Shown here piece by piece: positions 9,115-11,475 of a DNA stretch of 43,729 nt (its first letter is position 1; every line of letters starts with the position of its first letter). Both the position numbers and the translations under genes were made by a program. Under the pieces are notes generated by a model. It had not been told where the DNA came from. It was given only the letters and a program-made list of their open reading frames with translations, and did not search any database. The DNA is from a virus. Its lineage: Duplodnaviria > Heunggongvirae > Uroviricota > Caudoviricetes. Location: IMG/VR virus record IMGVR_UViG_2711768013_000010; one strand, written 5' to 3'.

Positions 9115-9681
9115 TCACGGTACTTTTGGTGACGGAGCTGGTGAGGCAGGAAAATAACGATAAAGGGTGGAAAGGCCAATATCAAATATCAGTGCGATTT
9201 GTTTACGGGACTCGCCATTAGCCAGCAAACGGGCGATTTGCTCCCGCTCTTTCTCTGTCAGTTTCTGAGGTCTGCCGCCATGACGCCCCTGAGCACGGGC
9301 AGCAGCAAGACCCGCGCGTGTACGTTCAATAATGAGTTCCCGCTCCATTTCCGCCAGCGCGCCCATTATATGGAAAAAGAAACGTCCCATGGGAGTGGAT
9401 GTATCAATATTGTCCGTAATGCTGCGGAAGTTAACGCCGCGTTGCCGGAGTTCTTCTGTTAAAAGGACAAGGTGCTGCATACTGCGTCCAAGGCGATCCA
9501 GTTTCCAGACCAGCAGGGTATCCCCTGGCCGGAGTCGCTTTAATGCGCGTTTAAGTCCGGGACGCTCCCTTGTCTTACCGCTTATTCTGTCTTCGAAAAA
9601 CAGCTCACATCCTGCACATTCCAGCGCATTTCTTTGTAGCGCCGTATTCTGGTCATTTGTTGACACCCTGATATACCCAAT
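9115..9681 (-). CDS. serine DNA invertase (Gin/Hin/Pin/Cin family), 5' end lost in assembly gap
   Basis: ..IGYIRVSTNDQNTALQRNALECAGCELFFEDRISGKTRERPGLKRALKRL.. is the canonical resolvase/invertase catalytic N-terminus (Ser in VSTNDQ), with a C-terminal HTH; ORF runs into the N run. Confidence 0.85.
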   Translation of the reverse strand: MGYIRVSTNDQNTALQRNALECAGCELFFEDRISGKTRERPGLKRALKRLRPGDTLLVWKLDRLGRSMQHLVLLTEELRQRGVNFRSITDNIDTSTPMGRFFFHIMGALAEMERELIIERTRAGLAAARAQGRHGGRPQKLTEKEREQIARLLANGESRKQIALIFDIGLSTLYRYFPASPAPSPKVP

Positions 9682-9777
9682 NNNNNNNNNNNNNNNNNNN
9701 NNNNNNNNNNNNNNNNNNNNNNNNNNNNNNNNNNNNNNNNNNNNNNNNNNNNNNNNNNNNNNNNNNNNNNNNNNNNN
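9682..9777. other. assembly gap (96 N)
   Basis: Run of N directly visible in the sequence. Confidence 0.99.
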
Positions 9778-9983
9778 CCGCCATAAGACTGGGGTCGGTG
9801 ACCGCACATATGCCCGGAACATGGGAAAGCTGGGATCTGAATCTGGGGGGCGGCAATGTTCTTACCGGAATTAAAGTACAGGATGTCGGTAAGAATACGG
9901 CAGATAACGTCGGCGGCGTGTATTACCGGCCGTTGCAGTATCTGTTAAATGGAGCATGGGTGACGGCTGCAAGTATATAATGA
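9778..9983 (+). CDS. silent alternative tail-fibre C-terminal cassette (no own start; candidate Sv')
   Basis: Plus-strand frame open from the gap edge; encodes ..AIRLGSV..GGVYYRPLQYLLNGAWVTAASI*, paralogous to the C-terminus of the expressed tail fibre (..[28 protein letters not shown]), in opposite orientation beside the invertase. Confidence 0.5.
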
Positions 9984-10011
9984 TATTCAGAAGGCCTTCC
10001 GGCCTTCTTTA

Positions 10012-10533
10012 TTACTGTGGCTGCTCAGGCCATTTAATGGCGTTAAATTCAGCTTCTGTTTTAATGGCGGGTAGTTCCATTTTCTTCACCTGACTGATGT
10101 ATGCCATCCATTGGGTAAGTGCTGCTCTGTCTTCATCGCTGATGGTGCCCAGTTGTAGCTCCGTTCTCCAGTCATTAATTTTTTCATATGCCTGATTAAG
10201 ATATGACTGGCGCATTGCTTCCAGTTTTCTTGCGTAGTTAACCGGAATACGGGAGATTATGCCATTATCAAACTTCCAGTTTCCTGAAATATCCGTGCCT
10301 TCAGGGAGTTCATCGACCTCAACCACAGAAAACCCCGCAGGATACAGCGCCGAGGCGTCCTGTGATATTGAGCAGATAACGCCGCTGTCAGGTGTTATGC
10401 AAAGTTTATATTTTTTGGTGAATAATGGCAGGGATTCGTAGAAATCCTTACCATCTTCACTCTGGAAATACTGAACATTATTACCATATGGCATATTTTC
10501 AGGATAATAACGGGTTATATTTTTTAGTTCCAT
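10012..10533 (-). CDS. tail fibre assembly protein (Mu U / P2 G-like chaperone)
   Basis: 173-aa ORF immediately downstream of the tail-fibre gene; C-terminal region resembles the conserved Tfa chaperone motif ending ..WPxxP. Confidence 0.8.
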   Translation of the reverse strand: MELKNITRYYPENMPYGNNVQYFQSEDGKDFYESLPLFTKKYKLCITPDSGVICSISQDASALYPAGFSVVEVDELPEGTDISGNWKFDNGIISRIPVNYARKLEAMRQSYLNQAYEKINDWRTELQLGTISDEDRAALTQWMAYISQVKKMELPAIKTEAEFNAIKWPEQPQ

Positions 10534-10584
10534 AAAATCCTCCTGGAAATAAATCTGTTTTAAAATATATTATTTACTGACTAT

Positions 10585-11475
10585 TTATAACTGAGATACC
10601 GTAATCCATGTACCTCCGACTAATTTTTGCAGGGGTCTGAATGCTATAAAATCGTTTGAAGCATCAACTTTACTGTCAATCTGCAGGCCTGCCATAACAT
10701 TACCGTACGCAGAGTAATATGCCCCACCGTACATTACCTGCCTGTTCTCTGCTCCCAGCCTGATATCCTGGATATATCGGGAATCCGCATCCTGCTGTGT
10801 TATACCAGAAGTGATGTTTATGTCCTGCGTCCCGTCAAAGGGAACCCCATTAATATTTCTTGGGGTGGCGAGTCTATTCGCGGCAACGGCGGTGCCGTCC
10901 GATGGCAGAGCATTCGCCGCCCTGTTTACCGTTTCCCGTAAACCGACGTTATCGATAAAAGCCCCTTTATCCGGAATGTCTGCGCCGTTCTGCTCCCTGC
11001 GCAGGTAACGGTTATCACCTTCGCTTTTGCTGTAAACATCCAGATTATTACGGGCGGTTCCCTTATTCTCCAGGTCGGCGAGATTCTGATCCTTCGCCAG
11101 GGCATTAACGTCAGCGGGACCAAGACTGTTTTTTGTGGCAAGCGTCCCCAGACCAAGATAACCACGGGCCAGACGCTGGGCCTCCGCACCGGCATCAGCA
11201 ATTTCTTTCAGGTTATTTTTCCGGGAAAAGGCATTCGCAGCGATAATGGCTTTAATGGACAGCGTAAGCTGGTTTAACTGCGCCTTATCCGGCTGAATAC
11301 TGGCTTCAGCCAGAATATTCAGCAGTTCGGCCTGGAGAATATTCAGCCAGTCCTGACCAATCCAGCTGATACCTTTTTGTCCGTCACCTTCGGTAAACCA
11401 GGTGGTGGTATTACTCTGCGCCGGTGCCAGCGCAGGCATATTCGCCACGCCGGAATTATTATCAACATGAAACAT
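10585..11475 (-). CDS. tail fibre protein (Mu S-like)
   Basis: 296-aa ORF after the baseplate genes and before the chaperone; last ~55 aa form the variable part paralogous to the inverted cassette. Confidence 0.8.

Follow-up and report, generated by a model that had tools for sequence, protein, structure and literature searches.

A compact invertible tail-fibre segment with a single chaperone gene in a Mu-like prophage type of Escherichia coli

Invertible tail-fibre segments are a textbook example of programmed host-range variation, and to our knowledge each fibre has a chaperone of its own in all classical cases. Here, we describe the tail-fibre module of a Mu-like prophage of Escherichia coli (E. 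coli), contained in a stretch of 43,729 nucleotides (IMG/VR record IMGVR_UViG_2711768013_000010; the whole stretch is hereafter called the window). The module shows the crossover within the fibre gene and the inversely oriented cassettes of the classical fibre segments, but not their co-oriented chaperone gene for each cassette (S-U and S'-U'). The C segment of P1 (invertase Cin), the P segment of e14 (Pin), and the B segment of Shigella boydii (PinB) resemble it in their Din-family invertases, their 26-bp crossover sites, the crossover in the fibre gene, and the inverse C-terminal cassettes. They differ from it in their two chaperone genes, coupled to the fibres by 3 nt or less or by overlap, and in segment lengths of 1.8–4.3 kb. 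The GA core of its sites is shared by bix of S. boydii, whereas cix of P1 and pix of e14 have an AA core. In the Min shufflon of p15B and the Gin shufflon of Enterobacter FR-phi, a Gin-like recombinase also swaps the C-terminal parts of fibres and cassettes may outnumber accessory genes, whereas the element in the window has two sites and two cassettes.

The resemblance to the G segment of Mu and its invertase Gin extends from the gene order (gp47, gp48, S, the chaperone gene tfa, invertase, com, and mom) to the crossover sites, which match gix at 21 and 22 of 26 positions and have the same GA/TC core. The site in the fibre gene lies at the same fibre codons as gixL in Mu S (N-L/V-G-L-Q/R-E-T-V-N), the invertase gene is located outside the segment with its start codon 65 bp downstream of the nearer site (54 bp in Mu), and the N-terminus and the tip of the fibre are homologous to those of S and S'. 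The module differs from that of Mu in the length of the segment (1.32 kb compared with about 3.06 kb) and of its cassettes (119 and 116 residues compared with 335 and about 319), and in having one tfa, preceded by a 51-nt spacer, where Mu has U and U' and a distance of 2 nt. Further differences are the repeat arms of about 140 bp with 87% identity, where the Mu repeats are given as 34 bp, and an esterase/DUF6645 gene between the invertase and com.

A reading of the window from its letters alone (the sequence-only reading) had proposed a G-segment-like switch at this locus. The inverted sites, an exact inversion among natural genomes, and the common occurrence of both forms bear out this proposal, and the element is very probably an active, compact host-range switch of the G-segment type. 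In the proposed mechanism, the invertase, encoded just outside a segment of about 1.32 kb (core to core), would recombine two inverted 26-bp gix-like sites. Inversion would then join the 177-codon constant part of the fibre gene (Sc) either to the Sv cassette, giving the 296-residue fibre of the state found in the window, or to the S'v cassette, giving a 293-residue fibre. The coordinates of the features are collected in Table 1.

Table 1. Features of the tail-fibre module, with positions numbered from the first letter of the window.
Feature	Position	Strand	Basis or remark
Gin-family serine DNA invertase gene, codons 3-190	9115..9681	-	Pfam; PHROG 125 DNA invertase; identity to Mu Gin
Assembly gap, 96 N standing for 233 bp	9682..9777		Alignment to L001 and L002
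S'v, visible 3' part, last 67 codons and stop, start-less in this orientation	9778..9980	+	Full cassette 116 codons
Intrinsic-terminator-like hairpin, 8-bp stem with 5 GC pairs, T-rich tail	9989..10008	+	Between the convergent stop codons of S'v and tfa
Sole tail-fibre assembly (chaperone) gene tfa, 173 residues	10012..10533	-	Caudo_TAP PF02413, E=5e-19; PHROG 136
Spacer from fibre stop to tfa start, 51 nt, 78% A+T, strong Shine-Dalgarno AGGAGG	10534..10584	-	Candidate tfa promoter site
Sv cassette, 119 codons of the currently expressed fibre, inside the invertible segment	10585..10945	-	In L002 and L004, inverted and lacking a start
Arm of the ~140-bp inverted repeat in the fibre gene, with 87% identity to its partner in the gap	10823..10963		Alignment with L001 and L002
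Fibre-side 26-bp gix-like site, TTCCCGTAAACC GA CGTTATCGATAA, core GA at 10945-10946 (fibre codon 177)	10933..10958		Pattern match to the Din-family consensus
Constant part of the fibre gene, Sc, codons 1-177, outside the segment	10946..11475	-	47% identical to Mu S residues 1-191

As the sequence-only reading had stated, a serine invertase of the Gin/Hin family lies beside the fibre genes. It contains the Resolvase (PF00239, E=1.6e-51) and HTH_7 (PF02796, E=4.9e-15) domains as well as the RVSTNDQ motif, and is 74% identical to Mu Gin over 184 residues. The visible part equals the intact 190-residue allele of the related E. coli locus L002 (the compared loci are numbered with the prefix L) from nucleotide 7 onwards, so that the gap takes away only ATGCTG, the start codon and codon 2. 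In strain DLI.5a (L001 1616..2187), the copy most similar to the window has a frameshifted invertase gene. Second copies of the prophage occur in NZ_CP103972, NZ_CP069093, NZ_AP043639, and NZ_CP011018, and in several genomes two such prophages coexist in opposite fibre states, which suggests that the invertase could act in trans.

The tail-fibre gene (10585..11475, minus strand, 296 residues) is split by the gix-like site, and Sc is identical in the Sv-joined and the S'v-joined forms. S'v is found joined to Sc as a 293-residue fibre in L002 and L004. The Sv (119 residues) and S'v (116 residues) cassettes begin with 45 residues that lie in the inverted repeat, 39 of which are identical, and diverge over the last 71–74 residues or so. 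Both end in a tip of about 70 residues homologous to the distal tips of Mu S and S' (structures 5YVQ and 8JU3), and the two tips share the Mu-type C-terminal motif. The start-less frame on the plus strand at 9778..9980 is a paralogue of the expressed fibre C-terminus, in agreement with the sequence-only reading. The length of 55–60 residues given there for both variable parts was too short; in the case of S'v, the gap had left only 67 codons visible.

Both crossover sites (12 + 2 + 12 bp) are inverted with respect to each other, agree with the Din consensus sequence TTC---AAAC- -A -GTTT---GAA, and have identical 2-bp cores. The fibre-side site is the only match to the pattern in the window outside the gap, where 0.05 matches are expected by chance. 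The invertase-side site, TTCCTGAAAACC TC GGTTTACGGGAA, falls in the gap and was read from L001–L004; it is inverted relative to TTATCGATAACG TC GGTTTACGGGAA of the fibre gene. Written in the GA orientation, the invertase-side and the fibre-side sites are TTCCCGTAAACC GA GGTTTTCAGGAA and TTCCCGTAAACC GA CGTTATCGATAA, respectively. According to the published table of Din sites, a GA/TC core characterises gix and bix, while hix, cix, pix, and mix lack it, and the core in the window is therefore that of gix and bix. The longest exact stretch shared by the two repeat arms spans 37 bp (10910..10946), and polymorphisms of the repeat arms change partner immediately 3' of the fibre-side site. The fibre-side crossover had previously been placed near 10753..10764; it lies about 175 bp upstream of that position.

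The 96 N at 9682..9777 are the sole run of N in the window. In gap-free E. coli genomes with 99.9% identity, they correspond to 233 bp, with exact flanks on both sides in the alignments to L001 and L002. The hidden sequence comprises codons 1-2 of the invertase, a 65-bp leader or promoter region, the 26-bp gix-like site, and the first 148 coding nucleotides of S'v, and with them one arm of the inverted repeat. Searching the window alone for repeats did not reveal the partner of the fibre-side site, which is hidden by the gap and was supplied by the gap-free genomes. The gap had been predicted to cover the invertase start and a crossover site, and the gap-free genome L001 shows both within the 233 bp. 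The recombination site in the closed gap is inverted to that of the fibre gene and lies in the repeat of about 140 bp with 87% identity.

A population of mixed orientation is a plausible origin of the gap, and recurrent contig breaks fit it, without proving it: at least 10 IMG/VR contigs from prophages of this type stop within the inverted repeat, at fibre residues 169-226, and many public records of the fibre protein are fragments cut at contig ends. Alternatively, the gap might be a plain collapse of short reads or a scaffolding artefact at the inverted repeat without any mixed population, an account that concerns the gap and not the switch and to which we would give somewhat less than an even chance. 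The exact stretches of up to 37 bp between the repeat arms are in favor of such an artefact, as is the gap itself, which runs 67 bp and 26 bp past the repeat and has a wrong length (96 instead of 233 positions), as is typical of scaffolders. However, current assemblers normally resolve repeats so short and only 87% identical unless two junctions coexist, and contigs of this prophage type break at the repeat again and again. NCBI records often call the fibre fragments at contig ends "transposase, partial" or "DNA-binding protein, partial", which looks like annotation spill-over from the Mu context. In practical terms, the 140-bp repeat repeatedly breaks draft assemblies and yields misnamed protein fragments.

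The evidence of inversion comes from the strains NCCP 13983 and FORC_029 (L003 and L004), which carry the prophage at the same insertion site. Compared over 42,738 bp, the two prophages differ in a single interval, 20785..22065, which lies between the two sites and is present as an exact reverse complement; after this interval is flipped, 0 mismatches remain. Because these near-clonal strains differ by the exact reverse complement of the segment alone, the inversion is recent and precise. Both orientations are thus present among natural genomes, contrary to the single orientation that the sequence-only reading would have taken as evidence against its proposal. Among 5,426 complete E. coli genomes, roughly 230 contain the one-chaperone version, the O157-type prophages included, and the prophage type is widespread in this species. 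Contiguous Sc-Sv, the state of the window, occurs in 6–7 of these complete genomes and contiguous Sc-S'v in 24. Among public contigs, the exact 296-residue fibre is encoded on 271 and the exact 293-residue fibre on at least 997. The S'v-joined state, with the chaperone gene antisense, is about 3.5 times commoner than the Sv-joined state in complete genomes and public contigs alike; clonal sampling or a true bias of the switch could account for this excess. INPHARED lists no isolated phage with the fibre-switch module, only Stx phages bearing an inserted Mu-like region.

The S'v-type cassettes are intact, whether joined or start-less, in every locus checked except L040. The ratios of nonsynonymous to synonymous substitution rates (dN/dS) are 0.07–0.13 for S'v at unsaturated dS, and 0.10–0.17 for the chaperone-linked Sv types at comparably unsaturated dS. 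These values point to strong purifying selection on the chaperone-less S'v and not to decay. The concern that the plus-strand frame might be a decayed pseudogene lacking an inverted-repeat partner is thereby removed, as the partner is present as well. A change of orientation should alter the receptor specificity and hence the host range, because the tips, though divergent, are homologues of the receptor-binding tips of Mu, and both are under purifying selection.

The same data bear on the idea that the S'v state is a non-functional OFF position, making the segment an ON/OFF switch of infectivity, or that the segment is a half-decayed two-chaperone segment that lost U'. The presence of only one chaperone would be in line with it, and the size of 1.3 kb, far below those of Mu G (~3 kb) and P1 C (~4.3 kb), fits a history of deletion. 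Nevertheless, selection constrains S'v no less than the Sv types, genomes more often carry the S'v-joined form, a whole lineage with an otherwise intact-looking module is fixed in the S'v state, and Citrobacter as well as at least four divergent groups keep the one-chaperone layout. We therefore hold an OFF state or a remnant to be most improbable.

The one real departure from the classical systems is the single chaperone. The sequence-only reading had set it apart from Mu, P1, and e14 on this account, rightly, with one Caudo_TAP gene here and two in each of those. The tfa product finds a match (E=4e-16) in chain B of PDB entry 5YVQ, which is Mu U, and its identity to U and U' of Mu amounts to 28% and 32%, respectively. 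Searches by tblastn with tfa, U, and U' found no second tfa homologue in any related locus. The gene sits between the cassettes, co-oriented with Sv and convergent with S'v. The layout of Sc, site, tipA-tfa-(tipB inverted), site, and invertase recurs in at least four divergent variant groups of E. coli, each of them in both orientations, and the orphan cassette is of the S'v type in every group. A Mu-like prophage of Citrobacter likewise has a single tfa. The one-chaperone layout is a conserved design. In the Citrobacter locus (L008 5000..8900, Citrobacter braakii ATCC 51113), a 472-residue fibre is accompanied by a single 229-residue tfa co-oriented with the inverted cassette, by an extra fibre-tip fragment, and by several inverted-repeat pairs. 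This locus may represent a multi-cassette, shufflon-like version of the one-chaperone design.

How a single chaperone might be deployed depends on the orientation. In the Sv state, tfa would be co-transcribed with the fibre gene. In the S'v state, it would be convergent with the fibre gene and the late operon, and the terminator after S'v would end late transcription ahead of tfa, preventing an antisense read-through. One generalist chaperone would serve both fibres, expressed independently of the orientation from the upstream spacer. The terminator-like hairpin is also found in L002 and L041. We considered it as a special feature of this module and rejected it, since a hairpin of different sequence stands at that place in each of the variant groups and in Mu.

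The spacer between fibre and tfa measures 51–120 nt and is A+T-rich in four single-chaperone lineages, whereas the distance is 3 nt or less, or an overlap, in six fibre-chaperone pairs of Mu, P1, and e14. The spacer of the best-sampled group has diverged 5–6 times more slowly than the synonymous sites of tfa. The N-terminal domain of Tfa is reported as the fibre-binding part (as summarised in PMC9608196). In the prophages compared here, this domain is 71–100% identical across groups whose co-oriented tips are 26–35% identical, and the Tfa domains co-vary with neither tip type. The lack of tracking argues for a generalist chaperone and does not by itself identify the client.

Seven loci (L021, L022, L023, L025, L031, L038, and L041; e.g., L041 5001..6740) share one deletion junction and have lost Sv, one gix site, and the invertase. 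They are locked as an S'v-type fibre with tfa antisense, while the rest of the prophage module looks intact. The tfa gene is nonetheless intact in this lineage, in five distinct alleles with dN/dS of 0.10–0.23 at dS of 0.11–0.43. The locked loci carry two S'v types, which indicates recombination since the deletion and makes them mosaics.

A shared, self-expressed chaperone is suggested by comparison of these loci, because the locked lineage keeps tfa, tfa has its own spacer, and the fibre-binding domain does not track the tips; we consider the chances of this part of the reading evenly balanced. With rather less assurance, we propose a generalist chaperone uncoupled from the late operon by its own promoter, or else a chaperone dosage that differs between the co-transcribed and the convergent state and makes Tfa, reported to stay on the fibres of Mu and to bind cell surfaces, part of the specificity switch. 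Such a generalist would mature two unrelated tips, and perhaps more in the relatives.

Instead, the chaperone might serve the co-oriented Sv alone, with the S'v fibre folding without Tfa or with Tfa supplied in trans from another prophage, and the switch would then toggle between a chaperone-capped and a bare fibre. This arrangement would explain why tfa in the flipped state is convergent with the late operon and behind a terminator, and agrees with the failure to detect a sense promoter. An orphan that is always of the S'v type fits a class of tips needing no chaperone of its own. Tfa proteins reportedly stay on the fibre and bind host surfaces, and given such retention, the presence or absence of Tfa could itself alter the specificity. 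Against it, tfa is intact under purifying selection in the S'v-locked lineage that has no Sv, an S'v-type tip in Citrobacter L008 precedes its own co-oriented tfa, and the Mu-type C-terminal motif is common to both tips. On balance, a chaperone restricted to Sv seems unlikely to us.

Several points weigh against an active host-range switch with a shared, self-expressed chaperone. The change of host range, the use of the chaperone by S', and a promoter belonging to tfa are the parts that we infer. In the sense direction of tfa, no consensus sigma-70 promoter was detected in the 51-nt spacer of the window, nor in L002; the counts in the sigma-70 scan are no higher than in shuffled sequence, so that the scan speaks neither for nor against a promoter. 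A Mu C-activator box was not found either, as TTAT-N5-7-ATAA motifs, sought by comparison with Pmom, are absent from the segment, and the mom promoter region of the window departs from that of Mu beyond the GATC cluster. Spacer sequences show no conservation from one variant group to the next. The divergence and the low dN/dS of tfa in the locked lineage could partly reflect imports from invertible relatives instead of changes that arose in place, and the best promoter-like sites of this lineage straddle the deletion junction and may thus be new, not ancestral. The evidence of inversion stems from the comparison of natural genomes, and none of it from the reads of this sample.

For the invertase gene, a Fis-bound enhancer in its 5' part is likewise only suggested. 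P1 annotates the Cin enhancer at nucleotides 19-90 of cin, and the same interval of the invertase gene in the window is 76–82% identical to cin, gin, and pinE, compared with 65–70% for nucleotides 91-400; one Fis-like motif, at nucleotides 71-85, is shared with gin. Coding constraint on the catalytic motif could explain the conservation of this interval.

The prophage setting bears on whom the switch serves. The window begins with smpB and the transfer-messenger RNA (tmRNA) gene (1711..2073) and a remnant of another prophage, followed by a transposable prophage of the Mu type that occupies about 4.7 to 42.9 kb on the minus strand. This prophage looks complete and encodes Mom, Com, the esterase/DUF6645 protein, the invertase, the tail-fibre module, baseplate proteins of the Mu gp48/gp47 type, MuB, MuA, and a repressor. 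In lysogens, inversion might mainly benefit the host if one of the alternative fibre proteins made by the prophage keeps other phages from adsorbing, as is reported for the P segment of e14 and PinQ. A study of PinQ and StfE2 showed that inversion of a fibre segment in a cryptic prophage can create a protein blocking T2 adsorption, and the wide distribution of the present prophage type in E. coli would suit such a role. It is, however, difficult to reconcile with the complete set of Mu-type structural, transposition, and Com/Mom genes and with a fibre gene located in the late operon, which is silent in lysogens. In addition, the related Sp18 was judged intact in silico, and nothing here indicates expression in the lysogenic state. 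A service primarily to the host is thus highly unlikely.

Other genes of the window deserve a brief description. Between the invertase and com/mom, a gene at 6975..9029 (minus strand) encodes 684 residues with a sialate-O-acetylesterase-type (SASA) domain and a C-terminal DUF6645. Mu has nothing at this position, and in the locked lineage the gene lies directly 3' of tfa; its product could be a receptor-modifying or lysogenic-conversion enzyme. The region from the tmRNA gene to the end of the Mu-like prophage (2272..4530) holds what remains of a side-tail-fibre gene (phage_tail_N), together with a DUF4376 gene and an IS66 transposase gene that is truncated, and the Mu-like phage adjoins, or is inserted in, this older degraded element. 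At L003 36717..36796 (window about 25540..25660), RefSeq has a "tRNA-OTHER" flanked by the virion-morphogenesis and head-morphogenesis genes; over the window, ARAGORN and Rfam detected the tmRNA and no tRNA besides.

The switch itself is not new in kind, and the invertibility of the Sp18 lineage was already known: it was noted in 2009 for Sp18, a Mu-like prophage of E. coli O157:H7 Sakai. Sp18 presumably belongs with the O157-type relatives of our prophage (e.g., L006 and L024–L029), which resemble it in an Sc of 98% identity, one tfa, two cassettes, and an invertase, and differ in other cassette alleles (tips 35–46% identical to those of the window) and in a tfa of 61% identity. The published remark on Sp18 makes no mention of a single chaperone and does not document the inversion. 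The literature that we searched contains no description of the one-chaperone design, of the locked derivative lineage, or of evidence for ongoing inversion, although an earlier one in subscription papers is possible.

The conserved one-chaperone version suggests that the pairing of fibre and chaperone is not obligatory in invertible fibre segments. It raises the testable question of what lets a fibre chaperone recognise its clients and of how its expression is achieved. If true, a generalist chaperone would represent a minimal design for invertible host-range modules, and a small chaperone able to fold a variety of tips would be of use in engineering the host range of phages or tailocins.

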